Origin: Nitrospirota bacterium
Lineage (GTDB): Bacteria; Nitrospirota; Thermodesulfovibrionia; Thermodesulfovibrionales; UBA1546
NCBI GenBank assembly: GCA_016195565.1
Contig: JACPZK010000011.1
Coordinates: 13,097 to 77,096, forward strand
Reading direction: 5' to 3'
DNA length: 64,000 nucleotides
Below, piece after piece: positions 9,584-64,000 of this stretch. Position 1 is the first letter of the stretch. Each line of letters begins with the position of its first letter. Both the position numbers and the translations under genes were made by a program. The notes below the pieces were generated by a model. It had not been told where the DNA came from. It ran no database searches and saw only the letters and a list, made by a program, of their open reading frames with translations.

Positions 9584-10183
9584 ATGAAAGTGTCAGGTAT
9601 CGGATTATTAAAAAAACTTTTCACTTTTAACTTTTCACCTCCCCATCCCCCCCTTACTAAGGGGGGGCGAGGGGGGGGCAACAAAGGTTTCACCCTCATA
9701 GAAACAGTAATCGTAATGGTCATTGCAGTTATCCTCGCTGCCGTGGTTGCCGTCGGATGGAGTCCTTTTGACACAATAAAACTCTACAATGCAAAGCGAA
9801 AAGTCGCCGCTGACATAAGATACTCCCAGAAACTTGCAATCTCATCACAGCAGAGGTGCGGAGTTTTCAGGAACAGCGCAACAGCTTACACAGTATTTGA
9901 ACAAGGCAGCACCGCTGACCCTGCGCCAAGTTCAGGGGATGGATGCTCCACAGATGCATCAAATAATTTTGTTGTTGATTTTAGCGCAGGCAGATGCAGT
10001 GATTACAGCGGAGTTACAACCACATTCACCACGTCCGTAGCAAATACAATATACTTCAACTCTCTCGGCACGCCTGTTGACGCCGCAGGAACAGCGATTG
10101 CAGGCAACCAGACTGTAACAGTCACTTTTAATGGCAGCAGGGATATAACCATAGACGCAGGCACAGGAAGGGTGAGTTACTAA
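9584..10183 (+). CDS. prepilin-type minor pilin/pseudopilin (GspH/FimT-like) with 35-aa leader
   Basis: KG|FTLIETVIVMVIAVILA cleavage/methylation motif; the leader contains a heptamer array plus C7/G7/G8 tracts. Confidence 0.75.
   Translation: MKVSGIGLLKKLFTFNFSPPHPPLTKGGRGGGNKGFTLIETVIVMVIAVILAAVVAVGWSPFDTIKLYNAKRKVAADIRYSQKLAISSQQRCGVFRNSATAYTVFEQGSTADPAPSSGDGCSTDASNNFVVDFSAGRCSDYSGVTTTFTTSVANTIYFNSLGTPVDAAGTAIAGNQTVTVTFNGSRDITIDAGTGRVSY
9616..9638. repeat. heptamer array (ACTTTTC ACTTTTA ACTTTTC ..), right-arm type only
   Basis: three or more tandem ACT-anchored 7-mers inside the prepilin leader. Confidence 0.8.
9647..9667. repeat. GC hairpin C7-TTACTAA-G7 (followed by CGA-G8)
   Basis: perfect 7-bp C/G stem; homopolymer tracts at 9647-9653, 9661-9667, 9671-9678. 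Confidence 0.85.
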
Positions 10184-10836
10184 TGAAAAAGTTAAGAGTT
10201 ATGAGTTTAGAGTTAAAAGTTAAAGACATCCTCAGAAAACTTTTCACTTTTAACTTTTCACTTTTAACTTCTAAAAGAGGTTTTACCCTCATTGAGATAT
10301 TGCTGATAATCATAGTTGTTTCAATCGCAATACCCACACTTTTAATTATGGTGGGGCAGGAAGCTAAGTTCGGGGTAGATGCTGAGATAAGAGTCACCGC
10401 AACAAATGTTGCACAGCAATTGCTTGAAGAGATAAAGGCAAAATGCTTTGATGAGACTTCCGTGTCCGGAACAACATGCATACAGACCGCAGCCGCTTCA
10501 ACAACGCTCGGGCCTGAGGCAGGAGAGACAGCGTTATCCTTATACGACGATGTTGACGACTTCAATGATTTGGCGCCGGCAAGTTTAGGAACTACTCCGT
10601 GCACCGACACAGTTACTGTCAATGGTATTGGATTCACAAGGCAGGCTGTGGCCTGCTATGTGAATCCCGGCAATCTCAACAGATGCGTGGATACTGCCCC
10701 TGTGGCGGGAAGCTGCAATAGGACCATTGCAAGCGGAAGCCAAACAGATTACAAAAATATAACCGTAACAGTCACCGCGCCTTCTGACTCCGGGGGCGGC
10801 TCTGTCACGCTGACAACAGTGATGACGAATTACTAA
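10183..10836 (+). CDS. prepilin-type minor pilin (PilV-like) with long leader
   Basis: RG|FTLIEILLIIIVVSIA motif; start overlaps the upstream stop (TAATG). Confidence 0.75.
   Translation: MKKLRVMSLELKVKDILRKLFTFNFSLLTSKRGFTLIEILLIIIVVSIAIPTLLIMVGQEAKFGVDAEIRVTATNVAQQLLEEIKAKCFDETSVSGTTCIQTAAASTTLGPEAGETALSLYDDVDDFNDLAPASLGTTPCTDTVTVNGIGFTRQAVACYVNPGNLNRCVDTAPVAGSCNRTIASGSQTDYKNITVTVTAPSDSGGGSVTLTTVMTNY
10190..10273. repeat. paired heptamer array: 5 x AGTTNNN, 14-nt spacer, 5 x ACTTTTN
   Basis: units phased by hand at 10190-10224 and 10239-10273; the arms are reverse complements. Confidence 0.9.
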
Positions 10837-10837
10837 G

Positions 10838-11413
10838 ATGAGAGTTAAAAGTTTAAAGTTTAAAGTTAAAAGTTCTTTGAAGAAACTCTTCACTCCTCAC
10901 TCTTCACTCTTCACTTGTAAAAATGGCGTTACGCTTATTGAGCTTGTCATAGTAATGGTTCTGGCAGCCATTGTTGCCGTTGTTGTGGCTAATGCCCTGT
11001 CAACGGGGGTTAAGGGAAACCTTGTGACAGACTACCGCAAAGAGGCGCTTGATCAGGCAAGGGTTGCGATGGAGAGGATGAGGAGAGAAATAAGGAATCT
11101 GAATAATAGCGCGAGCGTAACCACAGGAATCGCAACACAATTCTGTTTTACGGACACGGAATCATTGCTGATAGATTACAGTTATTCAAGTCCTAATATC
11201 ACCCGCGACACTGGCAATTGTGCTGCCGGAGGCGGGGCAACGCTTTCAACGAGTATAACTGCGTTTTCATTCGTTTATCTCAGGGCAGATGGAGTTACTG
11301 TTGATTCACCATTCTCCGCTGCAACCACAAAGCTTATAAGAATAATTTTGACCGCTAACATCTCAGGCGAAAGCGTTCAGCTTCAGACAGAGGTCTGGCC
11401 GCGGAATTTGTGA
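10838..11413 (+). CDS. prepilin-type minor pilin (PilW-like) with long leader
   Basis: NG|VTLIELVIVMVLAAIVA motif; EALDQARVAMERMRREIR region typical of PilW-like proteins. Confidence 0.7.
   Translation: MRVKSLKFKVKSSLKKLFTPHSSLFTCKNGVTLIELVIVMVLAAIVAVVVANALSTGVKGNLVTDYRKEALDQARVAMERMRREIRNLNNSASVTTGIATQFCFTDTESLLIDYSYSSPNITRDTGNCAAGGGATLSTSITAFSFVYLRADGVTVDSPFSAATTKLIRIILTANISGESVQLQTEVWPRNL
10843..10919. repeat. paired heptamer array: 5 x AGTTNNN, 7-nt spacer, 5 x ACTYYTC
   Basis: units phased at 10843-10877 and 10885-10919. Confidence 0.9.
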
Positions 11414-11425
11414 TATAATTTTTAT

Positions 11426-12445
11426 ATGAAACATAAACATTCAGGCAATTCCGGCATGTCCATCATTGCAACTGTCATGATTATGATGATACTTGCGCTT
11501 TTCGCCGCTATCGGAGTTTCGCTTGTAACAACCGGAAGCAATGTTGCGGTTCAGGAAGAGCGCGGGCTTGAGGCGTTTTACATTGCAGACGGAGGGCTTC
11601 AATACGCAATAAAGACATATAACTTTCCAAATTTTGTTGTTACTCCCAAGCCTCTCGGAGAAGGCTCATTTACCACAACAGTGCCTACGCTTTTAGCAGC
11701 TATAGATAATGCTGTGTTAACAATCACTGTGTCTTCAACAGACGGGTTTATTCTTAACCCCGGAGACGCAACCAGTTATTGGATAATGCTGTGTGATAAT
11801 AACGGCGCTGACAACCCGACTGCGACGCCGAATCCGAATCTTGACGCGGCAACGGCAAACTGTGAAAAAATAAGCTTTACAGGCAAAACAGCAACAACAT
11901 TTATAGGAGGCACAAGGGGAAGGGACAGCAGCACCGCAGACACCCATCAACTGGGCGCAGTTGTTCTTGGCTATTCGTGGGACCCGGCAAAAACAACGAC
12001 GATATCAACCCGTGATTTCACCACGGGTAATCGATGCACCAGTATTGCCACAACTTTATGTGTCGCCTCAACAGCGAATTTTGCAACCTCAGGCTTTGTC
12101 AGAATAGATGACAACAACCAAAACAACAGAGAGGATGTTTTTTATAACGGCATTGGCATTGGCGCAGCCCAATGCGGCGCGGGGTGCGCGGCGTGTCTGG
12201 GTTATACTAATCCTTTTCCCGCGGCGGGCAACTGCATAAGAAGGGCGTATGATGATAATAACAACACCACTGGAACCATCAATCACGACAGTTCCGACGC
12301 CGGCGGCGCCTACGGGGTGGTGGGCGCTCCAATCTATCAGTCTGAAATCTCTGTTCTTGCCACATCAACGGGCGTAGTTCCTGGTGCCATACTTACAGGC
12401 AACATACAGAGGGTTGTGCAGGGAAAAATAATGCCGCTGCAGTGA
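11426..12445 (+). CDS. PilX-like minor pilin / pilus-associated protein
   Basis: N-terminal hydrophobic helix GMSIIATVMIMMILALFAAIGV without FTLIE; position after the PilW-like gene. Confidence 0.55.
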   Translation: MKHKHSGNSGMSIIATVMIMMILALFAAIGVSLVTTGSNVAVQEERGLEAFYIADGGLQYAIKTYNFPNFVVTPKPLGEGSFTTTVPTLLAAIDNAVLTITVSSTDGFILNPGDATSYWIMLCDNNGADNPTATPNPNLDAATANCEKISFTGKTATTFIGGTRGRDSSTADTHQLGAVVLGYSWDPAKTTTISTRDFTTGNRCTSIATTLCVASTANFATSGFVRIDDNNQNNREDVFYNGIGIGAAQCGAGCAACLGYTNPFPAAGNCIRRAYDDNNNTTGTINHDSSDAGGAYGVVGAPIYQSEISVLATSTGVVPGAILTGNIQRVVQGKIMPLQ

Positions 12446-12462
12446 GGGATGGGAAATGGCCT

Positions 12463-12560
12463 GTCATTGCAAGGGCAGAATTTCTCGCTGTCATTGCGAG
12501 CACCTGAAAGGTGCGTGGCAATCTCATTGCAAAAGACGAGATTGTTTCGCTCGCAATAAC
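12463..12560. repeat. type-A palindromic element (with an extra head copy)
   Basis: gtcattgcaag..gtcattgcgag..tggcaatct..gagattgtttcgctcgcaataac. Confidence 0.8.
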
Positions 12561-12569
12561 CGGTAAAAT

Positions 12570-12857
12570 ATGGACAGACAATACTATCTATACATTATGA
12601 CAAATCAGAAAAATACAGTAATTTATACAGGTGTCACTAACAATTTAAAAAGAAGGGCTTATGAACATAAGGAGAAACTGGTTGAGGGATTTACAAAAAA
12701 ATATAACATTACAAAATTAGTTTATTACGAGATATTTAGTAATATAGAGTATGCTATTTTAAGAGAGAAACAGATTAAAGGCGGACCAAGAGCAAAGAAG
12801 ATTGCATTGATTAATAAAATAAATCATCAATGGAAAGACTTGTATGAAGACTTGTAA
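12570..12857 (+). CDS. small GIY-YIG nuclease-family protein
   Basis: YYLYIMTN...VIYTGVTNNLKRRAYEHK motif, 95 aa. Confidence 0.8.
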   Translation: MDRQYYLYIMTNQKNTVIYTGVTNNLKRRAYEHKEKLVEGFTKKYNITKLVYYEIFSNIEYAILREKQIKGGPRAKKIALINKINHQWKDLYEDL

Positions 12858-12879
12858 GGTTTGTCCCGAAAACAAGCAA

Positions 12880-12963
12880 GGGATTGCCCCGAACGGACAA
12901 GATTGCTTCGGGACTTCATCCCTCGCAATGACAGATAGGCGGAGTGTCTCTCCTCACAATGAC
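12880..12963. repeat. type-A element, right half with duplicated tail
   Basis: gggattgcc..agattgcttcggg..ctcgcaatgac..ctcacaatgac. Confidence 0.75.
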
Positions 12964-13005
12964 AAATGTATTGCTATCCAAAATTCCGTAAGGAACCGAA
13001 AACAT

Positions 13006-14697: not shown

Positions 14698-14741
14698 AAG
14701 GAATCAGCGTACTTCAAAGTAATTTGTGTTATAATTTTTGT

Positions 14742-15601: not shown

Positions 15602-15681
15602 AAGTAACTGTCACATGCTCCTCCAGAATTACAGCCACAGGCCAAAAACGCTTTCTGAGATGGCGCGAGGTCTTTCAGTAA
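15601..15681 (+). pseudogene. orphan 3' gene fragment (..VTVTCSSRITATGQKRFLRWREVFQ*) paralogous to the adhesin C-terminus
   Basis: no start codon in frame (stop at 15568-15570); compare ..LAVTSVSGATGAKRFLRWREVIQ* at 14629-14697. Confidence 0.45.
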
Positions 15682-15746
15682 GGCATTCTCATTTGACATG
15701 AAACAAACATGCCTCAAAAAGACATAAAGGGCAATGACACTGCAAT

Positions 15747-17026: not shown

Positions 17027-18450
17027 ATCTCTTCTGCTTTAATCCGCGGGGTTATGAATATGAGAAGTTCTGTTTTATCCTTTGTTTTAGTCTCTTTCTT
17101 GAACAGCCATCCAATCAGAGGAATCCTGGAAAGTAATGGTACTCCAGCCTCTCCCTCTGTTTCTGTCTCTGTATAGATGCCGCCGATAACTATTGTCTCG
17201 CCGTTTTTAACAATGAGATTGGTCTGCGTCTCACGTGTGTTCTTAGGCGGACTTCCCTGAACACTGCGGCTAAAGTCAAATACATCCCTGGATGTCAAAA
17301 TCTTCAGAGATATCTGGTCGTCATTTATCACCCTTGGAGTAACTTTTAACTGCAACAGAGCTTCTTTTTCCGTAACACTCGTAGTAGTAGTCGTTCCAGA
17401 CGTACTCGATGTAGGAATAAGTATGCCTGTGCCGCTCTTGATATAAGCCTCCTGATTGTCAAGAACCATCACCTTCGGGCTTGACAGCGTCCTTGCACTC
17501 CCCTGAGTTTCAAGGGCTGATATCTGGAGGTCAAGTATCGCATTTTTTGTAAGAATACCTATGCCTATTGCTCCGCCGGAACCAAACCCAACCGCAGCCG
17601 GCAGATTTACATTCAAAGCGCTCCCTCCAAAACCAGCGCCTCCTGTTAATGGGATTGTCCCTGTAGTTGTCGTGCCGGGACCTGTAGTGCTTGATGGCAG
17701 CACCCCTACAGTGCCGGTAGTACCTGTTGTGCCGCCACCGGATGTGCCGCCACCAAATATATATGCATCACCGTTCCGGTACATCGTGCCCCACTGTATG
17801 CCCAATTCCCTGCTTGCATTTGTGCTGACCTCAACAATCTTTGCCTCTATCATAATCTGCTTTGTCTTTACATCCACCTGTTTCAAAAGCTGCGTAACCC
17901 TCTCTATTGCAGACGGAATATCCCTTATAACTACCATATTGCTCTTCAGGTCAGAGGCAATGGAACCCCTCTTGCTTAAGACCTTTGTAATAATTCCCTC
18001 AATGTCTTTAGCATTAGCGTATTTAACGGTTGCCGTATAGGTCGCAAGGTCTTCGTCTGCTCCCGAAGAAATCACTCTCACAACATTCCCATCCTTTATG
18101 TATGCAAAGCCCTTGCCCTTTAATATAGAATCAATAGCATCCCATAGAGGGACATTCCTGAGGCTGACTGTCACCTTGCCCGTAACTTTTTCGTCAATAA
18201 TTATGTTTATGCCGTGCTCCTGTCCCAGCGCCCTCAAAACATCGCTCAGTTCAACGTCCCTTAATTCCATTGAGATAGGAGCGCCTTTTTCATTGGCGTA
18301 AGAAGGTGAGAAGTAAGAAGTAAACAGCAAAATAAGAGCAGTAGCGCAGAAGCGCAGAAGCGCAGCAGTAAAAGATTCCTTCACTAAAGACTGCTGCTCT
18401 ATTGCTCTATTGCTCTGTTGCACCCTTGACCCCTCTTTCTGCATTCTCAT
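17023..18450 (-). CDS. pilQ: type IV pilus secretin PilQ
   Basis: secretin C-domain (VPLLSRIPLIGWLFK, ELLIFITPRI); G/T-rich linker; an alternative GTG start at 18384 would give the signal peptide MKESFTAALLRFCATALILLFTSYFSPSYA. Confidence 0.85.
   Translation of the reverse strand: MRMQKEGSRVQQSNRAIEQQSLVKESFTAALLRFCATALILLFTSYFSPSYANEKGAPISMELRDVELSDVLRALGQEHGINIIIDEKVTGKVTVSLRNVPLWDAIDSILKGKGFAYIKDGNVVRVISSGADEDLATYTATVKYANAKDIEGIITKVLSKRGSIASDLKSNMVVIRDIPSAIERVTQLLKQVDVKTKQIMIEAKIVEVSTNASRELGIQWGTMYRNGDAYIFGGGTSGGGTTGTTGTVGVLPSSTTGPGTTTTGTIPLTGGAGFGGSALNVNLPAAVGFGSGGAIGIGILTKNAILDLQISALETQGSARTLSSPKVMVLDNQEAYIKSGTGILIPTSSTSGTTTTTSVTEKEALLQLKVTPRVINDDQISLKILTSRDVFDFSRSVQGSPPKNTRETQTNLIVKNGETIVIGGIYTETETEGEAGVPLLSRIPLIGWLFKKETKTKDKTELLIFITPRIKAEEI
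18306..18422. repeat. triple array: 4x7 (GTGAGAA-type), 4x8 (GCAGNAGC), spacer, 4x8 (CTNNTGCT)
   Basis: units phased by hand; covers the first ~48 codons of pilQ. Confidence 0.85.
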
Positions 18451-19010
18451 TCCTTCGCCTCCTTATCCTCTTTTTTATCTTTACCTTTGTCATCCTTTTT
18501 ATCTTTCACCTCATCATCCATGGCGCTATCTCTACGGGTATCCAGCGCAAACTTCTCTACTCCAAGATAAAACCTTTTGCCATTTTTTTCAAGCGAGACC
18601 CTGTCTTTCGCTATATCCACTATCAGAAAATCATTGACCCTTTCATTCTTCCTGTAAAATCCGCCGTTTATTATTGCCACCGCCTTCTTTCCGTCAGAAA
18701 TTATACCGGTAATCTTCAAGCCTACAAGCATATCTTCTCTAAACGTCTTGCCTTTTAGTTTTGCTATCTTGTCTTCATACCGGATAAATGGGTCCCTGCC
18801 CCACTTTTCTTTTATCGGTTGTTCCAGCGCGTCAAGTTTTATATCCGAGAGGCTCTCAGCATGTGCAAGTGAGAAGTGAAAAGTTAAGAGTAAGATGAGC
18901 CCAGTAGCCCAGTAGCTCAGTAGGGCAGCAGTTAAAGAGAAAGTCTTTGCAGTTGTATCTTCCTGCTGCTCTATTGCTCTACTGCTCTGTTGCTCTATCA
19001 ACCCCTTCAT
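18447..19010 (-). CDS. pilP: PilP-like pilus assembly protein
   Basis: GRDPF motif, beta-rich C-domain, position between pilO and pilQ; K/D-rich tail. Confidence 0.6.
   Translation of the reverse strand: MKGLIEQQSSRAIEQQEDTTAKTFSLTAALLSYWATGLILLLTFHFSLAHAESLSDIKLDALEQPIKEKWGRDPFIRYEDKIAKLKGKTFREDMLVGLKITGIISDGKKAVAIINGGFYRKNERVNDFLIVDIAKDRVSLEKNGKRFYLGVEKFALDTRRDSAMDDEVKDKKDDKGKDKKEDKEAKE
18869..18994. repeat. triple array paralogous to 18306-18422 (4x7, 4x8 GCCCAGTA-type, spacer, 4x8 CTNNTGCT)
   Basis: the last block is 30/32 identical to 18391-18422; the other blocks differ in sequence but keep period and unit number. Confidence 0.85.
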
Positions 19011-23516: not shown

Positions 23517-23572
23517 ATTCAAGATTCAAGATTCAAGATTCAAGAATTTTGAGTTTTGAATATTGAATTCTC
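23517..23572. repeat. paired heptamer array: 4 x ATTCAAG then 4 x ANTNTTG (hairpin, no spacer)
   Basis: four perfect ATTCAAG units begin 2 nt after the argG stop. Confidence 0.9.
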
Positions 23573-24681: not shown

Positions 24682-24747
24682 ATATTGTGGAAAATAAGCC
24701 AAATATAATATTTTTGCTTATTTTCTCATGTGCGAAATCTCTCATTT

Positions 24748-27499: not shown

Positions 27500-28107
27500 C
27501 TGATAAAAGACCGCTGATTATAGGCATCGGCAGCAGCCACAGCGGAGCCGGCAAGACAACGGTGGCAGAAGCGCTGCTTAAACACCTGACAAAAGAGCGT
27601 TCAGCGTTCAGCGTTCAGCGTTCAGAGGGAAAAAATAAAAATTCATCACTCGTCACTGATAAATGGGGCGCAATCAAATATACAAAAACTGCCATTTACG
27701 CCTCAATAATTGAGGACCCTGAGACATTAACGCAGGAAAGCAAAGATACTGCAAGGCTCATCAACGCAGGCGCCGAAAAAGTGCTGTGGGTTCAATCGCC
27801 TCCCGAAGAACTCAAAGAGGTTCTTCCCATGGCTGTTGACAGGCTTTCTAATCTCAGAGGGATAATAGTGGAAGGCAACAGCGCAATTGAGTTTTTGAAA
27901 CCTGATATTGTAATATTTGTATCTGGAAGACATGGCGGCTCTTTAAAGAAAAGCGCTGAAAGAGTTCTTGAAACTGCAGACATAATTTTATTTGAGGATG
28001 AACCTTCCATGAAATTGCCTGAAAAGGCAAAGAGATTTAAGGTTGTTTTTACACCGATGTCAGGATTTGGTGAATGCCTGGATTACATACAGAAATTGCT
28101 GAAATGA
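27496..28107 (+). CDS. MobB-like P-loop protein; expected start codon is ATA
   Basis: P-loop GSSHSGAGKTT lies upstream of the first canonical start (GTG 27562); frame is open from 27442; KDTARLINAGAEKV resembles the MobB core; 66-nt array insertion. Confidence 0.55.
   Translation: MTDKRPLIIGIGSSHSGAGKTTVAEALLKHLTKERSAFSVQRSEGKNKNSSLVTDKWGAIKYTKTAIYASIIEDPETLTQESKDTARLINAGAEKVLWVQSPPEELKEVLPMAVDRLSNLRGIIVEGNSAIEFLKPDIVIFVSGRHGGSLKKSAERVLETADIILFEDEPSMKLPEKAKRFKVVFTPMSGFGECLDYIQKLLK
27596..27661. repeat. paired heptamer array in frame: 4 x AGCGTTC, spacer, 3 x A(C/T)TNNTN
   Basis: 66 nt = 22 codons (RSAFSVQRSEGKNKNSSLVTDK) between the P-loop helix and the next strand. Confidence 0.85.
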
Positions 28108-39073: not shown

Positions 39074-39937
39074 ATGGTAAATTACCACAAAACATGGCGT
39101 CTTATCAATTCGGGTCCGGGCAGCGCATCCTGCAACATGGCGCTGGATGAGGCAATTGCTATTTCTGTCAGAAAAGGCAGTTCGCCGCCTGCACTGAGGC
39201 TGTATTCCTGGGACAGGCCCTCCGTAACTCTTGGCTGCTTCCAGAAAATCAGTGACATAGACACCGAATACTGCCGTGATGCATCAATCCCGGTTGTAAG
39301 AAGGCCCACCGGCGGAAGGGCAATACTTCACAATAAAGAACTTACTTACAGCTTCTCTGTAAAAACTGATAATGATTTATTTTCGAAAGGCATCTTTGAC
39401 AGCTATAAAAAAATAAGTGCGGCTTTTTATCTTGCCCTCTCAAAGATAGGTCTTTTGCCAGAATTAAAATTAATCAGGAAAACTCGTCACTTGTCACTCA
39501 TCACTCGTCACTCAAAAAGCCCGCTATGCTTTCAATCGGCATCTTATGGCGAGATAACCATTAACAGCAAAAAAGTGATAGGCTCCGCGCAGAAACGCTG
39601 GACTGACGGACTTTTGCAGCAGGGCTCAATACCGTATTGCATTGACGAGCCCGAAGTATTAAAAATCTTCAGGCTTCGCTCTATTCGGGATATAAAAGAC
39701 ACAATGGCAGGACTTATTGAGGCGGTCCCGGATTTAAGCGATGAAAAGTTCAGGAATATAGTAAAGATTTCTTTTGAAGAGGCATTCAATATAGAATTTA
39801 TCTCATCTATTCCTTCTCAGGAAGAGGATATCCTGGCTCAGAAGCTTGATTCTGAGAAGTATCGGACAGAGGAATGGAATTTCCGGAAACAGGTTCAGTC
39901 CCTTCCGCCTGAGGCGGAGGCGTTTCAGAGAGCTTAA
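39074..39937 (+). CDS. lipoate/biotin protein ligase family (LplA/LipB-like) protein
   Basis: WRLINSG..NMALDEAI, RRPTGGRAILH, KKVIGSAQKR; start set to MVNYHKTWRLI. Confidence 0.75.
   Translation: MVNYHKTWRLINSGPGSASCNMALDEAIAISVRKGSSPPALRLYSWDRPSVTLGCFQKISDIDTEYCRDASIPVVRRPTGGRAILHNKELTYSFSVKTDNDLFSKGIFDSYKKISAAFYLALSKIGLLPELKLIRKTRHLSLITRHSKSPLCFQSASYGEITINSKKVIGSAQKRWTDGLLQQGSIPYCIDEPEVLKIFRLRSIRDIKDTMAGLIEAVPDLSDEKFRNIVKISFEEAFNIEFISSIPSQEEDILAQKLDSEKYRTEEWNFRKQVQSLPPEAEAFQRA
39482..39516. repeat. heptamer array in frame: 5 x ACTNNTC (ACTCGTC ACTTGTC ACTCATC ACTCGTC ACTCAAA)
   Basis: encodes TRHLSLITRHSK inside the ligase. Confidence 0.85.
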
Positions 39938-41041: not shown

Positions 41042-41806
41042 ATGAATGCATCAACAAAAAAGACAATACTCAAGATTAGCGGAAATTCTGTCACAAAGGC
41101 AGATGACGCGGTAGCCGTTGAAAAGAGGCTGAGAATACTTATAAACAGGGAAGAGGTTATAAGCCTTTACTGCACTCCTTTTATGATAAGAGAGCTCGTG
41201 GTCGGCATACTCATGACAGAGGGTATTATTAAAGGTGAATGGTGCGCTGACAGGATGAGCATAGAATACGGTGATGATATTGTTGTCAACATAAATTCAG
41301 CAGACGCAGTCATCCCTAAAGAGAACAGGGTTATAACATCAGGCTGTATAGGCGGTATCACATTCGTAAAAAAAATGGAGAATGAAAAGATAACAGATGA
41401 ATTTTCAATCGAGGCAAAGAGTCTTCTCAGCATCTTCAAGGAATTTCAGCTCCGCTCTGATCTTTACAGGCTTACAGGCTGTGTTCACAGCGCTGCGCTT
41501 TCAGACGGCAGGCATATTATTGCATTCGCAGAGGATATAGGAAGGCATAATGCGGTTGACAAGGTCATAGGATACTCCGTGCTTGAAAACATAGGGCTCG
41601 CAGGAAAACTGATGCTCGCAAGCGGAAGGCTTTCATCTGAGATTGCGTCAAAATGCTCAAGATGGGGCATCCCGATAGTTGCAAGCAGGACCGCGCCAAC
41701 GCATCTTGCGATTGAGATCGCAGAATTAAGGGGGATTACGCTTGTCGGATTTGTCCGGGGGGACAGGCTCAATGTTTATACACATCCGCAACGAGTTAAA
41801 AGTTAA
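41042..41806 (+). CDS. fdhD: formate dehydrogenase accessory sulfurtransferase FdhD
   Basis: GCVHSAAL, GRHNAVDK, LASGRLSSE motifs. Confidence 0.85.
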   Translation: MNASTKKTILKISGNSVTKADDAVAVEKRLRILINREEVISLYCTPFMIRELVVGILMTEGIIKGEWCADRMSIEYGDDIVVNINSADAVIPKENRVITSGCIGGITFVKKMENEKITDEFSIEAKSLLSIFKEFQLRSDLYRLTGCVHSAALSDGRHIIAFAEDIGRHNAVDKVIGYSVLENIGLAGKLMLASGRLSSEIASKCSRWGIPIVASRTAPTHLAIEIAELRGITLVGFVRGDRLNVYTHPQRVKS

Positions 41807-41872
41807 TAGTTCAAAATTAAAAGTTAAAAGTTTTAAAACTTCACACTCTCAACTTTTAACTCTTAACTTTAT
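41794..41872. repeat. paired heptamer array: 6 x AGTTNNN, 2-nt spacer, 5 x ACTNNNN
   Basis: the first units encode the last fdhD codons and its TAA (41804-41806); the array ends 6 nt before the kinase ATG. Confidence 0.9.
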
Positions 41873-48056: not shown

Positions 48057-48445
48057 TGAAAAAGTTTGCTGTATTCAGTTTAATCATGCTTTTAATAGCG
48101 GGCATTGCTTATGCAAAAGATTATGAAGTAAAGAAAAAGGCAGGGGAATACGATGTGGAGATAAAAATCGACAAAAACCCGCCTGTAGTGGGCGACAATA
48201 ATATCACAGTAGAAATTAAAGATGCATCGGGTAAATATGTGACCGATGCAAAGGTGAAGGTTGAATATTCCATGCCTGCCATGCCTGGTATGCCTGCCTC
48301 GAACTACAAGACAGACACAGAACTCAAAGGCTATGAATACAAGGCAAAGATGAATCTCTCCATGTCAGGTGCGTGGAATGTCGCAGTAAAAATAACAAGG
48401 AGCGGTAAAACCACAACGGTAAAATTCAATGCGGATGCGCACTAA
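48053..48445 (+). CDS. secreted YtkA/FixH-like Met-rich metal-binding protein
   Basis: signal peptide; MPAMPGMPAS; Ig-like beta pattern. Confidence 0.55.
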   Translation: MMKKFAVFSLIMLLIAGIAYAKDYEVKKKAGEYDVEIKIDKNPPVVGDNNITVEIKDASGKYVTDAKVKVEYSMPAMPGMPASNYKTDTELKGYEYKAKMNLSMSGAWNVAVKITRSGKTTTVKFNADAH

Positions 48446-49835
48446 GATAGAAGATAAGAGGATAAGAAGTTTGGAAGATAAGAATATTACCTCCAATGCA
48501 CAACTTCTCAACTTCTCAACTTCTCAATTTCTAATTCTTTTACTGTTTACTGTCTACTGTTTACTGTCTACTGAAAATGCTTTTGCCGAAGAACTGAAAC
48601 TTCAGCCCCTGATAGACGAGGCGCTGAAGAGCAATCATGACCTCATTGTATCAGGATTAAAGGTATCCACTTCAAAATACAAGATACCTCAGGTACAGAG
48701 CCTTCCTGACCCCATGTTCATGTTCGGCTATCAGAATGAAGGATACGACAGATACACTTATGGCGAGATGCAGGGCGCACAGTGGATGTTCTCTGCATCT
48801 CAGATGTTCCCATTCCCCGGGAAGCTATCGTTAAAGGGAGAGATGGCTCTTAGAGATTCTGAAAGCCTAAAGGCATTATACGAATCCGCAAAGCTCACAA
48901 CAATAGCGAGAATAAAAGAACTTTACTATGACCTGTTCCTCACCTATAGAGACATTGACATCATTAAAGACAAGAATTCGCTTTTCTCAAGGATAGAGGA
49001 TGCAGCCATTGCAAGATACTCATCAGGCATGGCGCCGCAGCAGGAAGTATTAATGGCTCAAACAGAAAAATACATGCTGCTTGAAAAAGAGGAGATGCTG
49101 AAACAAAAGCTGCGATCCATAGAGGCGATGCTAAACACAACCGTTGGCCGGGATGTTAATTCGCCTCTCGGAAGGCCTGTTGAACCTGTTTATGTTTCGT
49201 ATAACCCAAGCATGGATGAACTTCTTAAAATGTCATACTCAAATTCTCCTCTGATAAAATCCAGAGAAAAGATGATTGCCTCGGCAAAGGCAAAGGTTAA
49301 TATGGCTGAGAAGGAATATTATCCTGATTTCACCATTGCCGGCTCAGTCTTTGAGCGGAGGGGAGAGTTCAAAGATATGTGGAGCCTCACAACCACAATC
49401 AACATACCTATTTTTTATAAAACAAAACAGAAAATGGCTGTGCTTGAGGCAGAATCAGCCCTTTCAGAGGCAAAACACGAACTTGAGGCGGTTAAGTTAA
49501 TGCTGTCATCCAATATAAGAGAAAACTACTCTATGATTAAGGCTGCGGAAAAATTAACGGAGCTGTACAGGAATGGACTTATACCCAAGGCATATCAGGA
49601 TTTTGAACTCGCAATTGCCGGATATGTAACAGGAAAAGTCGAGGCAATAACTGTCATAACAAGGCTGAAATCACTTATTGACTATGAGCTTTTATACTGG
49701 GGGCAGTTTACGGAAAGAGAGAAGGCAACAGCGAGGCTTGAGGCGATAACAGCAGTCAGCAATCAGCACTCAGTACGCCCTGCTCTTCAGAATAAAATTG
49801 AGGCGAGCGTCATTCAGGGAGAAAAAGAAAAATGA
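48429..49835 (+). CDS. TolC-family outer membrane efflux protein (CusC position)
   Basis: two OEP repeats; the N-terminal 55 aa are encoded by arrays. Confidence 0.8.
   Translation: MRMRTKIEDKRIRSLEDKNITSNAQLLNFSTSQFLILLLFTVYCLLSTENAFAEELKLQPLIDEALKSNHDLIVSGLKVSTSKYKIPQVQSLPDPMFMFGYQNEGYDRYTYGEMQGAQWMFSASQMFPFPGKLSLKGEMALRDSESLKALYESAKLTTIARIKELYYDLFLTYRDIDIIKDKNSLFSRIEDAAIARYSSGMAPQQEVLMAQTEKYMLLEKEEMLKQKLRSIEAMLNTTVGRDVNSPLGRPVEPVYVSYNPSMDELLKMSYSNSPLIKSREKMIASAKAKVNMAEKEYYPDFTIAGSVFERRGEFKDMWSLTTTINIPIFYKTKQKMAVLEAESALSEAKHELEAVKLMLSSNIRENYSMIKAAEKLTELYRNGLIPKAYQDFELAIAGYVTGKVEAITVITRLKSLIDYELLYWGQFTEREKATARLEAITAVSNQHSVRPALQNKIEASVIQGEKEK
48444..48576. repeat. triple array: 5 x 8 (AGATAAGA-like), 16-nt spacer, 3-5 x 8 (ACTTCTCA), 5 x 7 (ACTGNNT)
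   Basis: units phased at 48444-48483, 48503-48541, 48542-48576. Confidence 0.9.
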
Positions 49836-51072: not shown

Positions 51073-51166
51073 AGTGAAGAGTGACAGTGTACAGTGCCAG
51101 TGAACAGACTCAGAAAACTGAACATTGACACGGAAAAAACTGACACTAATCACTGACACTGATACT
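51073..51166. repeat. paired array: AGTG-anchored 6-7-mers x6, spacer, ACTG/ATTG-anchored units
   Basis: agtgaag agtgac agtgtac agtgcc agtgaac .. actgaac attgaca .. actgacac .. actgacac; fills the cusB-cusA intergenic region. Confidence 0.85.
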
Positions 51167-57800: not shown

Positions 57801-57878
57801 ATTGTGTATGGTCTTTATGGGGTGACGGAGGAGGGAAAAAGGATAATTCAAGATTCAAGATTGAAAATTCAAAATTAA
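54819..57878 (+). CDS. single-chain Type IIG restriction-modification enzyme (PD-ExK nuclease + N6-adenine MTase + TRD)
   Basis: N-terminal RPDY..x13..VEAK; motif I LDPACGSGSFL; motif IV IGNPPYV; long C-terminal specificity-like region. Confidence 0.8.
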   Translation: MADINSFREKLQSLIAKFEKDKAHYVSKGYPEAQVRLDFLNPFFKALGWDIENKAQKPPHERDVIVELSPETTGRPDYNFRINGATKFFVEAKAPSVALDDINHILQAKSYAWSTKEVYFVVLTDFEEFRLYDASLKPNPKFPDEGLILGLKHTDYLNNIEKLWELSKERIEQGSLEALLPKDTKSKRLRIPPDKSFLEDLTEWRTELAKDLHKRNPEFDVKLLNDVVQKLLDRIIFIRIAEDRRIRPDKELMEIVALWKEEGKRKSIMSHLLDLFHEVNDDLNGDIFKPHACERADVDSNLIAEIIENLYFPKSRYRFDAIGVELLGSIYERYLGSTIRVTPQRVKVEEKPEVRKAGGVYYTPKYIVDYIVKNTVGKLIEGKTPKQIEKIKILDPACGSGSFLLGAYQYLLDYHLEYYRKHTKEAQTQFFDFYHKVGPEDLALPLRTKAMILRNNIFGVDIDPQAVEITMMSLYLKALEGERGMLPKKQHLLPPLSNNIKCGNSLIGYDILDQGNLFDDETKSRINPFDWNSKSVGFGEIMESGGFDVIIGNPPYVRIQAMKEWAPDEVAHYKQHYVSASKGNYDIYVIFVEKGLSLLNPKGRFGFILPHKFFQTQYGEPLRGIISKGKHLSEVVHFGDQQVFEGATTYTCLLLLDKSPTKKLNFVKVQDLSLWRVTGQAIRGTIPSADIGASEWNLAIGDAATIFNRLKKMPVKLKDIADIFVGLQTDADDVYILEERQRKDGQVLCYSKATGQTHWLEDNHLKMFVKGSLNVRRYELVNVNKRLIFPYKIVDGKSQLIDAVQYGKDFPLTWQYLVDNKPLLIRRNKGKIQRTEWYGYVYKKNHTRLATPKLLVPSIGTGSCFAADISGEYYFVGSGGGGGGGYGISLAATQNISYSYLLGLLNSALLSNYLKSISTTFRGGYIALNRQYIEHLPIRTIDFNNLTEKAIHDKLVSLVDRMLDLHKKKNALPPSSEREKIEREIAITDEKIDDIVYGLYGVTEEGKRIIQDSRLKIQN

Positions 57879-57926
57879 AGATTAAGAATTCAAGGTTCAA
57901 AATAAATTTAAAATTCAAGATTCAAG
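57846..57926. repeat. direct heptamer array, about 12 x ATTCAAG-like units
   Basis: attcaag attcaag attgaaa attcaaa attaaag attaaga attcaag gttcaaa ... attcaag attcaag; the first units encode the R-M C-terminus and TAA. Confidence 0.9.
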
Positions 57927-57939
57927 AAAGGAGAAAAAC

Positions 57940-58386: not shown

Positions 58387-58442
58387 ATTCAACATTCAAA
58401 ATTTAAAAATCAAAAATTGAATATTGAATTTTGAATATTGAA
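58387..58442. repeat. paired heptamer array: 4 x ATTCAAN then 4 x NATTGAA (hairpin)
   Basis: starts 1 nt after the stop; attcaacattcaaaat is the reverse complement of attttgaatattgaat (15/16). Confidence 0.9.
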
Positions 58443-60445: not shown

Positions 60446-61524
60446 TGATAAAGGCTCCGGAACATATCAGTGCGCTCAGGCCCTACATCCCCGGCAAACC
60501 CATAGAAGAACTTGAAAGGGAACTTGGGATAAAAAACTCCATAAAGCTTGCCTCAAATGAAAACCCTATAGGCCCTTCTCCCGCGGCTGTCAGGGCCATA
60601 ACAGCAGGGTTTAAAAAAACACTGAACAGATACCCTGATGGAAACGGGTATTATCTCAAAAATACACTGGCAGAAAAACTCTCTGTTAAACCTGAAGAGA
60701 TTATAATCGGAAACGGCTCAAATGAACTTCTTGACATAGCGGTAAGGACCTTCTTAGCTCCGGGTGATGAGGCTGTTATGGCACACCCTTCTTTTGTTGT
60801 TTACTCTATGGCCGTTCAGGCAGCAGGCGGAAAGGCAATTCACGTGCCGCTCAGGGATTACAAGCATGACCTGGACGCAATGTTGAGCGCTGTAACGCCA
60901 AAGACAAAGATGTTGTTTATAGCAAATCCGAATAATCCGACAGGCACAATGAATACAAAGGAAGAATTTGACAGGTTGATGAGCAAAATCAGGGACGGCA
61001 TACTTGTAGTTGTTGATGAGGCATACTATGAATATGTTACAGATACCGGATACGCCGACAGCTTTAAATACTTCAGGGACAGCAGGGATATATTAATTCT
61101 TAGGACCTTCTCCAAGATTTACGGACTTGCGGGACTCAGGATCGGCTATGGCATTGCACCTCAGGAAATAATTACTGAAATGAACAAGGTGCGCGCGCCG
61201 TTCAACACAAACTCTATTGCGCAGAAAGCCGCAATAGAGGCCTTAAAGGACAAAGGCCATATCAAAAAATCAAAAGGAATAAACGACAAAGGCAAAAAAT
61301 ATCTCTACAAAGAACTTTCTTCACTCGGAATAAGGCCTGTGCCCACAGAGGCAAATTTCATCTACATGCCTGTTGCCGATTCAATGAATATTTATAAAAA
61401 ACTTCTTCATGCCGGAGTTATTGTCAGGCCCATGGGGCCTGATGCAATACGGGTGACCATTGGTCTGCCTGAGGAAAATAAAAGATTTATAAACGCATTA
61501 AAGAAGTTAAAAGTTGAGAGTTAA
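60445..61524 (+). CDS. hisC: histidinol-phosphate/aromatic aminotransferase
   Basis: class II aminotransferase; RTFSKIYGLAGLRIGY PLP-Lys motif. Confidence 0.85.
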   Translation: MIKAPEHISALRPYIPGKPIEELERELGIKNSIKLASNENPIGPSPAAVRAITAGFKKTLNRYPDGNGYYLKNTLAEKLSVKPEEIIIGNGSNELLDIAVRTFLAPGDEAVMAHPSFVVYSMAVQAAGGKAIHVPLRDYKHDLDAMLSAVTPKTKMLFIANPNNPTGTMNTKEEFDRLMSKIRDGILVVVDEAYYEYVTDTGYADSFKYFRDSRDILILRTFSKIYGLAGLRIGYGIAPQEIITEMNKVRAPFNTNSIAQKAAIEALKDKGHIKKSKGINDKGKKYLYKELSSLGIRPVPTEANFIYMPVADSMNIYKKLLHAGVIVRPMGPDAIRVTIGLPEENKRFINALKKLKVES

Positions 61525-61576
61525 GAGTGAGCAGCTTTGTAATTTTTAACTTTAAACTTTTAACTCTTCACTTAAT
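61505..61576. repeat. paired heptamer array: 5 x AGTNNNN, spacer, 4 x ACTNNNN
   Basis: the first units encode the hisC C-terminus (KLKVES) and TAA 61522-61524. Confidence 0.9.
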
Positions 61577-61589: not shown

Positions 61590-62615
61590 ATGGACATAAT
61601 AGTTTTAAACCGGAAGGCTACTGAAAAAAACATCGACCACCTGCTCAAAAAACTTGAAGGCAAAGGGCTGAAGGCAACTATCTCACGAGGCACCGAAAAA
61701 ACAGTTATAGGCGTCATAGGCGATACATCACGGATAACAGAGGAAGAAGAGAATGCTGTTCGGGTTATGAAAGGTGTTGAGGATGTGGTGAGAATCCTCA
61801 AGCCGTATAAACTTGCAAGCAGGGATTTCAAGGCCCAGAACACGATAATAAAAGTCAAAGGGAAAGTTATCGGAGGCAAAAAAATACCTGTTATTGCAGG
61901 GCCGTGTGCTGTTGAAAACAGAACTATAATGATAAACATAGCCGAGAAGGTTAAAGCAGCAGGGGCGTCGTTTATAAGAGGAGGCGCTTATAAACCAAGG
62001 ACCTCGCCTTATTCATTTCAGGGCCTTGGAGAGGAAGGGCTTCAGTACCTTGCCGAGGCGAGCAGGAAAACAGGGCTCCCCGTTGTCACAGAGATAATGG
62101 ATCCGAGAGATCTGGATACAATACTTCAATATACAGACATAATTCAGATAGGGGCAAGGAATATGCAGAATTTCAGGCTGCTCCTTGAGGTCGGGATGTG
62201 CAATAAACCGGTTCTTCTCAAGAGAGGGCTTTCAGCCACAATCCAGGAATGGCTTATGGCAGCAGAGTATGTAATGTCAAAAGGCAATCAGGAGGTTATC
62301 CTCTGCGAAAGAGGCATAAGGACCTTTGAGACAGCAACAAGGAACACCCTTGACCTCAGCGCTGTGCCTGTGCTGAAACAAAAAACGCATCTGCCTGTTG
62401 TAGTGGACCCGAGCCACGGCGTCGGCAAATGGGATCTGGTTGCTCCTATGGCAAAGGCTGCTGTTGCAGTCGGCGCAGACGGCCTTCTCATAGAAGTGCA
62501 TACGAACCCTGAAAATGCAATGTCAGACGGAGAGCAGTCCTTAAAACCCGATGCATTCAAAAAATTGATGTCTGAATTAAAACTGATAGCAAGGGCTGTT
62601 GGACGAGAGATATAG
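61590..62615 (+). CDS. 3-deoxy-7-phosphoheptulonate (DAHP) synthase, type I-beta with N-terminal regulatory domain
   Basis: [23 protein letters not shown] motifs. Confidence 0.9.
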
Positions 62616-62619
62616 AACA

Positions 62620-62654
62620 AATTGAAAGTTGAAAGTTTAAAATTAAAAGTTAAT
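62620..62654. repeat. single-arm heptamer array, 5 x A(G/A)TTNAA
   Basis: aattgaa agttgaa agtttaa aattaaa agttaat; the last unit contains the tyrA ATG. Confidence 0.8.
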
Positions 62655-63510
62655 GAAGGATATAAAGTTCAATAAAGTCACTATTATCGGCGTGGGCTTA
62701 ATCGGCGCATCATTTGCCCTTGCCATGAAGAAAAGAGGGCTATGCAGTCACATCACAGGCTGCGGCAGAAGAGAAAACAACCTCAAGATAGCAATGGAGA
62801 TGAAAATAATTGATTCTTTTGAGGTTGACGCATCAAAGGCATGCGCTGACTCTGACCTCGTTTTATTCGCTATTCCTGTGGGCTGTTTTACAGAGACGGC
62901 AAAAAGAATAAACGGCTCATTTAAAAAAGGCGCAATTGTAACAGATGTCGGAAGCGTCAAAGGAAAACTTGTCAGGTATATGGAAGCCCTGATGCCTGAA
63001 GGTGTAAGTTTCGTAGGCGGGCATCCGATAGCAGGAAGCGACAGGACCGGGATAGCCACAGCAACAGCGGATTTATTTTCAGGCGCAAGGTGCATATTAA
63101 CACCAACGGAAAAAACGGATAAGGCTGCTCTGAAAAAAATCACCGCATTATGGGAGTCGCTCGGCGCAGCAGTTTCTGCTATGGATGCAGAGGAGCATGA
63201 CAGGATATACGCTGCCGTAAGCCACCTCCCACATATTATTGCCTATGCAATCGTCAATACAGTAGCTGACATAAACAGCTCGTATCTCGGATATGCAGGC
63301 AACGGATTTAAAGACACAACCCGGATTGCGGCGAGCTCCCCTGAACTATGGCGCGATATATCCCTGATGAACAGAGAGAATATTCTTGAGTTCATAGAGC
63401 TTTTTAAAAAAAATCTCGACGGCCTCAGCGGTTACTTAAAGAAATCAGATTCTGAGGCTATTGAAAAGGAATTTAAAAAAGCCAGGGCGCTGAGGGAAGA
63501 TGTCAGATAG
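62653..63510 (+). CDS. tyrA: prephenate dehydrogenase
   Basis: [13 protein letters not shown] fold; HPIAGS; operon context. Confidence 0.85.
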
Positions 63511-64000
63511 GATTGAATTAAGAAGGGCAAAAAGATTAAAAGGCGAAATTATTCCTCCTCCTGATAAATCCATATCTCACAGGGCAGTCATCCTCTCCTC
63601 TTTGGCAAAAGGCAGAAGCATTGTCAGAAATTTCCTCAGGGCTGAAGATACAATGAGCACGGTTAATGCATTCAGAAAACTCGGAGTGAAGATAGATGAA
63701 GGCAGGGGTCAAGGGGTCAAGGGGTCAAGGGGTCAAGAGAAAGAAAATGACATGGTAATTCACGGCAACGGCATACATGGGTTAAAAGAACCTGAAGATG
63801 TAATCGACTGCGGCAATTCAGGCACGACAGCAAGGCTGATGTCAGGCATACTTGCAGGGAATCAGTTTTTTTCCGTGCTTACTGGAGATGATTCTTTAAG
63901 GCAAAGACCCATGGCAAGGGTTATAAATCCCCTTAAAGAGATGGGCGCAGAGATTTCCGGAAGAGACGGTGATAAATATCTTCCGATGGCAATAAAGGGA
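63500..64000 (+). CDS. aroA: 3-phosphoshikimate 1-carboxyvinyltransferase (EPSP synthase), 5' partial, runs off the window
   Basis: PPDKSISHRA, GNSGTTARL, LRQRPM motifs; not in the ORF track because it is open-ended. Confidence 0.9.
   Translation, partial: MSDRIELRRAKRLKGEIIPPPDKSISHRAVILSSLAKGRSIVRNFLRAEDTMSTVNAFRKLGVKIDEGRGQGVKGSRGQEKENDMVIHGNGIHGLKEPEDVIDCGNSGTTARLMSGILAGNQFFSVLTGDDSLRQRPMARVINPLKEMGAEISGRDGDKYLPMAIKG
63705..63736. repeat. octamer array in frame: 4 x GGGGTCAA
   Basis: perfect tandem copies encoding GQGVKGSRGQ within aroA. Confidence 0.9.

Follow-up and report, generated by a model that had tools for sequence, protein, structure and literature searches.

Tandem arrays of 7- and 8-nucleotide units at gene borders in a chromosome segment of a Nitrospirota bacterium

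Genomic setting and reality of the arrays

The stretch of DNA analysed here, referred to as the window, comprises 64,000 nucleotides of a groundwater Nitrospirota bacterium of the order Thermodesulfovibrionales (GenBank assembly GCA_016195565.1, contig JACPZK010000011.1, positions 13,097 to 77,096, forward strand). It is an ordinary chromosome segment containing topA, dprA, argG, pilMNOPQ, hemA, pfk, a cus/acr efflux operon, hisC, aroF and aroA. No mobile-element gene was identified among the approximately 60 window open reading frames (ORFs) scanned for transposases, reverse transcriptases and RAYTs, the transposases associated with repetitive extragenic palindromic (REP) sequences. Short arrays of tandem 7- or 8-nt units are located at gene borders, at the 5' ends of genes and inside a few conserved enzymes. 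These arrays are a Nitrospirota instance of the heptamer-repeat phenomenon described as short tandemly repeated repetitive (STRR) sequences or long simple sequence repeats (LSSR), and not a new kind of system.

An initial annotation, made from the sequence alone, had listed 16 array loci and proposed a scan at lags 7 and 8 against shuffled sequence. Tandem Repeats Finder (TRF) reported tandem 7- or 8-nt arrays at all 16, in agreement with a unit-by-unit view. Merged period-7/8 arrays from TRF amounted to 30 in the 64 kb, against a mean of 3.1 and a maximum of 6 in 30 dinucleotide-preserving shuffles. The strict lag scan gave five arrays at period 7 and five at period 8; periods 4-6 and 9-12 gave zero or one, and shuffled sequences gave none. 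Both the number of arrays in the window and their bias towards gene borders, described below, exceed chance.

Three independent contigs cover parts of the same region: L001, from an NCBI metagenome-assembled genome (MAG; GCA_016178645.1), which is 99.96% identical to the window with no gaps, and L002 and L003, two Logan contigs from separate runs, both 100% identical. Together they reproduce base for base the arrays at 10190, 10843, 18306 and part of 23517, and the window arrays are identical in L001 and L003. The short-read contigs L001, L002 and L003 start or stop exactly at arrays (against window positions 9695, 23537 and 18485). The repeats fragment assemblies of this lineage, and they probably distort gene-start calls as well, several PilQ orthologs being annotated from an internal methionine.

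Placement relative to genes

A gene stop codon lies inside the array or within 12 nt of it at 10 of the 16 loci and within 25 nt at two more, against 1.5 under random placement (maximum 7 in 5000 trials). The link to gene borders drawn in the initial annotation therefore holds when tabulated against stops. The same asymmetry was found in a cross-genome scan with the pattern AGTT..x3 / gap / ACT.TT.x2.4, which identified at least 120 loci in many phyla. Among the 120 scan matches listed, the arrays stand at a median distance of 14 nt from the upstream stop and of 115 nt from the next start. The matches listed include at least 58 cyanobacterial, at least 28 Bacteroidota and at least 15 Nitrospirota/Thermodesulfovibrionia loci, together with Nitrospinota, Acidobacteriota, Patescibacteria, Chloroflexota, Clostridia and others, and the nearest DNA match to the window among them is a Thermodesulfovibrionales MAG.

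Other arrays are translated, as had been read from the sequence at the outset. Reading frames are open through the arrays in six N-terminal presequences, those of three consecutive prepilin-like proteins, PilQ, a PilP-like protein and a TolC-like channel, and in three internal inserts. The three prepilin-like genes carry the N_methyl motif (Pfam), with leaders of 26-34 residues ending in KRG/FTLIE or similar. The gene at 9584 has in-frame start codons only at codons 1 and 3. The in-frame starts of the pilins all lie upstream of the left arm or at it, so that translation takes in the right arm at least. In the genes at 10183 and 10838 the frame in use is the only one free of stops and is kept open by variant units. 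In the left arm at 10190 the unit in AGT-TAA phase is the variant AGTTTAG, and at 10843 the phase-0 units are the stop-avoiding variants AGTTTAA and AGTTCTT. The pyrimidine-rich arms, the pyrimidine-rich arrays at 48444 and the three internal arrays, among them the MobB-like insert at 27596, contain no stop in any sense frame. In general, purine-rich arms contain stop codons and code for a K/E/Q/S-rich peptide, and pyrimidine-rich arms are stop-free and code for an L/F/S/T-rich one, so that translation of a module at a 5' end gives an n-region and then an h-region.

A second hairpin family, with runs of C and G (CCTCCCCATCCCCCCCTTACTAAGGGGGGGCGAGGGGGGGG), was observed at 9639-9680, where it is translated in the leader of the first pilin as SPPHPPLTKGGRGGG. 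Similar in-frame inserts of the form ..PP.TKGG.GG were identified in relatives: in the MobB-like gene of L126, in an FG-GAP gene of L149 and in the AroA homolog P0123.

In-frame arrays in conserved enzymes, also proposed in the initial annotation, were confirmed for lipoate-protein ligase (LplA), EPSP synthase (AroA) and a MobB-like protein. At the MobB-like site relatives carry a C-run/G-run hairpin insert (L126) or a (CAGCTAT)n insert (L128). The AroA turn has 2-3 residues in approximately 55 homologs, and the close homologs P0121 and P0123 carry other inserts there. The AroA unit is also arrayed in the PilQ orthologs P0012 and P0031. Whole AGTT/ACT paired modules were identified in frame in other Nitrospirota MAGs: in a P-type ATPase, a GH57 enzyme, a HypF linker and, just before the NPPF motif, a methyltransferase.

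One composite module, formed by (AGAGCAnn)n, a loop, (CTGCGCTn)n and then heptamers, is common to the presequences of PilP and PilQ. The loop is conserved and non-repetitive and has two forms, loop A (TCTTTAGTGCAGAAATCTTTA) and loop B (GAAGATACAACTGCAAAGACTTTTTCTTTA). Copies were found by a metagenome scan combined with an exhaustive protein search. The metagenome pattern gave 14 true modules in 110 matches, the remainder being estimated to lie at about chance. The 51-residue cassette peptide gave one fragment in a word-indexed protein search and four matches, one of them informative (P0243), in the exhaustive search. The octamer module with loop A or B was identified in six contexts: pilP, pilQ, the genes of an FG-GAP protein, the LptE lipoprotein and a Peptidase_S11 carboxypeptidase, and the tuf-rpmG spacer. 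At the N-termini of the FG-GAP protein, LptE and the carboxypeptidase it is read in the same frame as in PilP and PilQ. The tuf-rpmG copy is untranslated and lies directly past the tuf stop, upstream of rpmG. Whole modules, arms and conserved loop together, thus recur at unrelated loci, with their loop variants redistributed from copy to copy: A and B have changed places between pilP and pilQ when the window is compared with L126, and L191 has loop A in both genes, with additional units. From loop exchange and recurrence it follows that the octamer modules, at least, disperse and recombine as entire units. The module borders showed neither target-site duplications nor conserved ends, and no orthologous empty site was close enough to define the junctions. 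The LptE lipoprotein signal peptide (ending ..SGC/GY) is made of AGTTGAA/ACTGTTC heptamers in one MAG and of the octamer loop-B module in another (L080, L201).

Table 1. Tandem arrays of the window, their genomic context and their folding (free energy, or z score against shuffles)
Position	Strand	Array	Context	Folding	Source
9616..9638	+	lone pyrimidine-rich array ACTTTTC ACTTTTA ACTTTTC AC	within 34-residue leader of prepilin-like gene 9584-10183; translation MKVSGIGLLKKLFTFNFSPP...NKG/FTLIE		TRF, Pfam N_methyl
10190..10224	+	left arm AGTTAAG AGTTATG AGTTTAG AGTTAAA AGTTAAA	translated in leader of prepilin-like gene 10183-10836	hairpin with arm 10238: -22.4 kcal/mol, z = -2.5	TRF
10238..10274	+	right arm ACTTTTC/ACTTTTA, 5 units, 14-nt super-period	encodes LFTFNFSLLTS directly before KRG/FTLIE		TRF
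10843..10919	+	AGTTAAA-type x5, 7-nt spacer, ACTCTTC-type x5	leader of prepilin-like gene 10838-11413	sense poor (z = +0.75), antisense -20.5 kcal/mol	TRF
18296..18422	-	loop-A module (AGCAATAG)n, TCTTTAGTGAAGGAATCTTTT, (CTGCGCTT)n, (ACTTCTT)n	5' end of PilQ gene (secretin Pfam matches); encodes QQSNRAIEQQSLVKESFTAALLRFCATALILLFTSYFSPSYA		TRF
18866..18998	-	loop-B module (ATAGAGCA)n, GAAGATACAACTGCAAAGACTTTCTCTTTA, (CTACTGGG)n, (ACTYTTN)n	5' end of PilP-like gene	-39.8 kcal/mol, z = -2.0	TRF
23517..23572	+	(ATTCAAG)x4 + inverted partner (AATTTTG AGTTTTG AATATTG AATTCTC)	begins 2 nt past argG stop, upstream of dprA	z = -4.4	TRF
27596..27661	+	(AGCGTTC)x4.3 + short ACT-type remnant	in frame, MobB-like P-loop protein; flanked by AEALLKHLT and WGAIKYTK
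39482..39516	+	(ACTCGTC)x5	in frame, variable region of LplA gene 39026-39937
41794..41872	+	AGTTAAA-type x6 / ACTNTTA-type x5 pair	gives last codons and stop of fdhD, fills spacer to histidine kinase gene	sense z = -3.6	TRF
48444..48576	+	three arrays (AAGATAAG)x5, (CAACTTCT)x4, (TTTACTG)x5	begins at ytkA stop, forms presequence of TolC-like OEP gene	weak, z = -0.7	TRF
51073..51166	+	AGTGAMR-type / ACTGAYA-type pair	fills hlyD/cusB-acrB/cusA spacer	z = -3.6	TRF
57846..57926	+	degenerate long (ATTCAAG)x12	gives last codons and stop of Eco57I-like gene	no hairpin, z = +0.74	TRF
58387..58442	+	(ATTCAAA-type)x4 / (TATTGAA-type)x4 pair	begins 1 nt past stop of 23S-rRNA-IVS protein gene	z = -4.4	TRF
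61505..61576	+	AGTTRAG-type x4 / ACTTTWA-type x5 pair	gives last codons and stop of aminotransferase gene, upstream of DAHP synthase gene	z = -3.2	TRF
62620..62654	+	lone AGTTGAA-type x5	fills spacer from DAHP synthase (aroF) stop (62615) to next gene start (62653)		TRF
63705..63736	+	(GGGGTCAA)x4	in frame, turn of AroA; encodes GRGQGVKGSRGQ

Structure and folding

The arms consist of 4-5 units, and their length has its mode at 30-35 nt for both 7- and 8-nt units, in the window and at other Nitrospirota loci. The figure of exactly five units stressed in the initial annotation is overstated. The length distribution of the Nitrospirota arrays breaks off at approximately 35 nt, that of the cyanobacterial ones trails out to long lengths. 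The AGT/ACT core, described at first as a conserved anchor, was identified in 13 of 21 heptamer arrays (approximately 20% expected) but in only 2 of 9 octamer arrays.

Folding of the paired arms was clearly better than that of shuffles at 7 of the 12 folded loci (z -2.0 to -4.4) and no better at the other five, so that the hairpin pairing proposed initially is frequent without being general. Duplex energy averages -18.2 kcal/mol for the arms of one locus and -10.5 kcal/mol for arms taken from different loci (permutation p = 0.0014), and the matching falls into three family blocks: AGTT/ACT, ATTCAAG/TTGAAT and an 8-mer family. The loops of the AGTT/ACT window loci are unrelated to each other. 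The units of one arm have no exact one-to-one counterparts in its partner, and a perfect 14-nt super-period is peculiar to the right arm at 10238, which indicates that the arms slip independently once formed.

Most arrays are arranged as convergent inverted pairs whose purine-rich arm is 5' on both strands. The purine-rich arm comes first in 17 inverted pairs against 3, and in 22 other adjacent pairs against 7, all of them pairs that were not selected by pattern. This order is unchanged by reverse complementing and thus says nothing on the direction of transcription; for the same reason the arm order was rejected as a marker of orientation relative to genes. The gene pairs that flank the scan loci, among the matches listed, are oriented ++ in 23 cases, -- in 41, +- in 23 and -+ in 16. 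A local-seed origin of the polarity, from purine-rich gene ends and pyrimidine-rich signal-peptide starts, was also rejected (lone arrays 0.557 vs 0.543, p = 0.89). As lone arrays follow no purine rule relative to gene ends, the polarity is a property of the pair.

Pairs of G:U type, restricted to one strand, had been suggested as a mark of a functional RNA strand. The G:U pairs do not keep to any one strand consistently, and no strand folds consistently better. In the 11 window hairpins the totals are -243.7 kcal/mol for sense and -255.7 kcal/mol for antisense, with five loci favouring sense and six antisense. At 64 scan loci with co-directional flanks the mean difference is -0.22 kcal/mol, sense being better at 33 and antisense at 28 (p = 0.64). 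Scan loci were excluded from the counts of G:U versus A:C oppositions because the scan pattern fixes TT in the right arm and so favours G:T oppositions on the matched strand. No Rfam family overlaps an array in the window, the 36 terminator-like sites in 44-64 kb all fall away from the arrays, and a scan for promoter and terminator consensus sequences gave no coincidence with arrays. With sense and antisense folding equal, nothing indicates selection specific to the mRNA.

Variation among relatives

Four syntenic relatives were obtained through PilQ orthologs, L124, L126 and L128 being among the contigs compared. In the comparison of orthologous loci that the initial annotation had called for, the same spacers hold different array families. 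The argG-dprA spacer contains (ATTCAAG)4 and its inverse in the window, whereas L126 has the 8-mer pair (GGTGAATA)n..(GATTCACC)n there and both L128 and L124 have arrays of the AGTTGAG type. Five different sets of arrays were observed at the pilO-pilP and pilP-pilQ junctions.

Among PilQ orthologs with 60-92% identity the start of the mature protein, (N/D)EKG(A/P)PISMELR (NEKGAPISMELR), is retained and the arrays differ; their presequences are unrelated and coded by repeats. Distant PilQ orthologs have a plain 20-residue signal peptide. Peptides conserved in distant taxa whose DNA lacks the 7-nt periodicity, named at the outset as evidence that would speak against a repeat system, were absent for the PilQ and AroA homologs. 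The arrays turn over fast at the DNA level, and their unit numbers differ between lineages. This turnover is fast relative to a point divergence of approximately 10%, yet it is not hypermutation.

Relation to known repeats

Heptamer repeats have been on record since 1990. A literature search on heptamer repeats in Nitrospirae found nothing relevant among the papers searched, and none of the published units CCCCAGT, TTGGTCA, CAACAGT, TAACTGA and GGGAATC is present in tandem in the window.

The first group to be compared is that of the cyanobacterial STRR, correctly named as the nearest precedent in the initial annotation. Hairpin-forming heptamers of this type are "not unusual" among filamentous cyanobacteria, their function being unknown (Devine et al. 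2009, PMC2670836); roles in transcript stability or translational coupling have been proposed (PMC2670836, PMC4679880). As in the window, they comprise tandem 7-nt units, many of them with an AGT/ACT core, at dispersed intergenic loci, with hairpin-forming inverted sets between cistrons such as hupS-hupL (PMC2670836). Pairs of the kind (AGTTATC)n..(ACTGTTC)n and (AGTTAGG)n..(ACTCTTA)n were among the at least 58 cyanobacterial scan loci. The window arrays differ in host and units, include 8-nt families, stop at approximately 35 nt and are often translated. They fall outside STRR in the strict sense, which implies the canonical published units and a cyanobacterial host. They share the general STRR/LSSR features of dispersed tandem 7-mers, a mostly intergenic position near the upstream stop, inverted sets and variability between relatives.

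The second group comprises the GGGAATC heptamers of Xanthomonas, whose arrays most often have four units, form 70-75 convergent inverted pairs and are intergenic in 89-93% of cases (Rehm et al. 2015, PMC4692102). They are located on average 28 nt past the upstream ORF and 160 nt before the next, overlap ORFs in 7-11% of cases and vary between close species (PMC4692102). The excess of heptamers has been ascribed to the polymerase footprint together with slippage, an idea cited in the same work (PMC4692102). A paired, fixed-length, border-hugging architecture, of which the initial annotation knew no description outside cyanobacteria, had thus already been described. Both systems have few-unit heptamers in convergent pairs, nearer to the upstream ORF and variable between close relatives. 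Unlike the single G-rich Xanthomonas family, interpreted as forming G-quadruplexes, the Nitrospirota arrays are A/T-rich, belong to many families, include modules with conserved loops and code for presequences.

The third group is formed by the TAACTGA repeats of Beggiatoaceae, Bacteroidetes and Cyanobacteria (MacGregor 2015, PMC4679880), heptamer sets of 2-6 copies near gene borders with a patchy spread across phyla, like those described here. TAACTGA is the reverse complement, cyclically permuted, of AGTTATC, and is one or two changes from the window units AGTTATG and AGTTAAG. Between strains these repeats show indels in 7-nt steps (PMC4679880). The 'Maribeggiatoa' sets are nearly all unpaired and located just upstream of starts (169 direct, one indirect), whereas the window has inverted pairs just past stops.

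The remaining systems are more distant. The arrays are neither CRISPR nor canonical REP sequences, in agreement with the initial annotation: the 24-48-nt repeats and unique spacers of like length of a CRISPR are absent, the units being 7-8 nt and head to tail. REP sequences and REPINs have two inverted arms, a short spacer, an extragenic position often just past stops and dispersed families, as here. A REP arm is, however, one unique imperfect palindrome of 20-40 nt with a conserved head, recognised by a RAYT, whereas the window arms are tandem 7/8-mers of many families and no RAYT was found among the window ORFs scanned. REPINs, unlike the window arrays, are not normally translated. The Rickettsia palindromic elements (RPE) are palindromic repeats in frame in unrelated conserved genes, to which they add surface peptide segments (PMC10969869). 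Two features of RPE or of miniature inverted-repeat transposable elements (MITE) were found: one element at several unrelated loci, as shown for the octamer module, and in-frame insertion in conserved genes. RPEs have approximately 150 bp, no tandem 7/8-mers and a conserved peptide, whereas here the inserts at one site differ between relatives. Finally, the CTCTT repeats of Neisseria opa, whose unit length is likewise indivisible by three, code for the hydrophobic leader peptide with which an outer-membrane protein begins (PMC3960869). They are long, unpaired and phase-variable at approximately 10^-3 per generation, whereas the arrays described here have 4-5 units, are paired, occur also at housekeeping genes and are stable between near-identical strains.

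Other features of the window

In the segment at approximately 9400-15700 the three prepilin-like genes led by arrays are accompanied by two unknown proteins of 339 and 617 aa and by an MNT/HepT toxin-antitoxin pair. The segment is missing from most syntenic relatives, in which nicX is followed by cutA; L126 keeps only the Polbeta/HepT pair. A gene for a 23S-rRNA-IVS protein (four-helix-bundle, Avd-like) is bracketed by ATTCAAG-type arrays (57846-58442), directly after the Eco57I-like restriction-modification gene. As a candidate partner of the arrays this protein was rejected, tblastn against the 120 listed array loci giving no matches.

A tRNA-Ala(CGC) gene at 21753-21828, between the pil operon and argG, is the sole Rfam match in the window. 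Repeats of other periods were also identified: a perfect 12-mer x2.9 (AATTGACAACCT) at 30470-30504, between the convergent genes hemA and fic; a period-24 repeat at 18461-18519, which codes for the Lys/Asp-rich C-terminal tail of the PilP-like protein; and a second period-24 repeat at 40961-41019, upstream of fdhD, which contains GCTCGCAATGAC. A dispersed double-hairpin repeat of approximately 65 nt (TGTCATTCCG..CGGAATC...GGATTCCCGC..GCGGGAATGACA) has four copies in the window (38927-38991, 24747-24806, 46761-46827 and 15746-15811) and more in related MAGs (L090, L191, L201). It looks REP- or MITE-like, with no relation to the heptamer arrays.

Discussion

The arrays are, we think probably, repeats with fast turnover at the DNA level. 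Slippage together with template switching or ectopic conversion would generate them, they would then be confined to harmless positions, and some would have been co-opted as presequences, the mechanism being an inference. Arrays would grow and shrink through replication slippage, and the inverted arms and dispersed copies would come from intrastrand or ectopic template switching or from gene conversion. Purifying selection would spare arrays only where they do little harm: just past stops, between cistrons, within N-terminal presequences that are cleaved off, and in linkers or surface loops. At a 5' end, a module could then be co-opted as a signal peptide or prepilin leader. A role at the RNA level, such as that of an intercistronic hairpin, would be secondary and is unproven.

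Several points weigh against this reading. No mechanism was directly observed. Two strain pairs at 99.97% identity, over 11 and 21 kb (L126/L127 and L128/L129), show no array indels, so slippage is not fast on that scale. Slippage alone does not explain why the same unit families recur across loci and phyla: approximately 60% of the heptamer arrays have an AGT/ACT core, and AGTT/ACT pairs are common to Cyanobacteria, Bacteroidota and Nitrospirota. Neither does it explain an arm length of 30-35 nt whatever the unit size or the purine-then-pyrimidine polarity of the pairs (17 vs 3 and 22 vs 7). An enzyme dedicated to the arrays, or a function under selection, could lie behind such regularities, and matched arms fit equally well a selection for hairpins that act as DNA or on either strand.

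A stronger version of that idea, decidedly doubtful in our judgement, is that an active, sequence-preferring process installs and exchanges hairpin modules with arms of approximately 32 nt at gene borders in several phyla, and that the cell exploits them as portable export presequences and intercistronic structures. The modules would be built of AGT/ACT-cored heptamers or of octamers, the purine-rich arm always being 5', and one cassette would serve PilP, PilQ, LptE, the S11 carboxypeptidase and the FG-GAP protein.

Selected RNA elements, modelled on the roles proposed for STRR and shown for REP, are an unlikely alternative. The hairpins, between cistrons or at 3' ends, would stabilise the upstream mRNA, pause or terminate polymerase arriving from either direction, or gate translation of the next cistron. 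The arrays do begin a few nucleotides past stops and fill operon spacers, 7 of 12 folded loci beat shuffles with arms matched by family, and the pair polarity implies that RNA of either strand would end in a U/C-rich 3' arm, a weak RNA-DNA hybrid beside a hairpin. Transcript stability and translational coupling are also roles that the literature has proposed (PMC2670836, PMC4679880). Sense and antisense, however, fold equally, five folded loci are no better than shuffles, no array has an intrinsic-terminator or Rfam match, spacer contents are replaced wholesale between relatives and many arrays lie inside coding sequence.

Miniature elements of MITE or REPIN type, mobilised in trans by a dedicated transposase or nuclease from another part of the genome and tolerated in frame as RPEs are, would account for the conserved-loop module in at least six unrelated contexts and for whole paired modules in frame in conserved enzymes, with a presence that differs between relatives. 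REPINs reportedly offer a precedent for such movement. RPEs offer one for the in-frame copies (PMC10969869). This origin is quite unlikely given that the window ORFs scanned include no transposase, RAYT or reverse transcriptase, that neither target-site duplications nor conserved termini were seen, and that most families, AGTT/ACT for example, have unrelated loops and a variable unit number that fits slippage.

Contingency loci, in which slipped-strand mispairing would toggle the pilins, the PilQ secretin and the outer-membrane channel, are suggested by the 7-/8-nt arrays in the presequences of six exported or pilus proteins and by the documented case of opa CTCTT (PMC3960869). We regard them as very improbable, since arrays also occur at the housekeeping genes argG, aroA, lplA, hisC, fdhD and tuf-rpmG, have 4-5 units only, with all window copies in frame, and are of equal length in near-identical strains and in the independent assemblies available for this organism. 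An artefact of assembly or sequencing, for which the breaking of short-read contigs at arrays could be cited, can be dismissed on the identity of three independent contigs through the arrays, the intact reading frames and the related arrays in many independent assemblies and isolate genomes.

As fast-turnover DNA repeats, the arrays present several features that appear to be new: the repertoire of many 7/8-mer families in Nitrospirota, the portable presequence cassette, the repeated in-frame insertion at the same protein sites, and the regularities of arm length, polarity and AGT/ACT core across phyla. The last of these constrain any mechanism, as arms of 30-35 nt regardless of unit size, purine-then-pyrimidine polarity and AGT/ACT cores in several phyla have to be accounted for. 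The lineage offers clean handles on the question, with syntenic spacers that hold differing families and module copies that can be tracked between loci. In practical terms, the arrays break short-read assemblies and probably inflate or mis-set gene starts in the annotation of MAGs. For the biology of these bacteria, non-coding repeats become working parts of proteins: they supply signal peptides, the leaders of prepilins and inserts in the loops of essential enzymes, and offer a concrete example of coding sequence arisen de novo from repeats.

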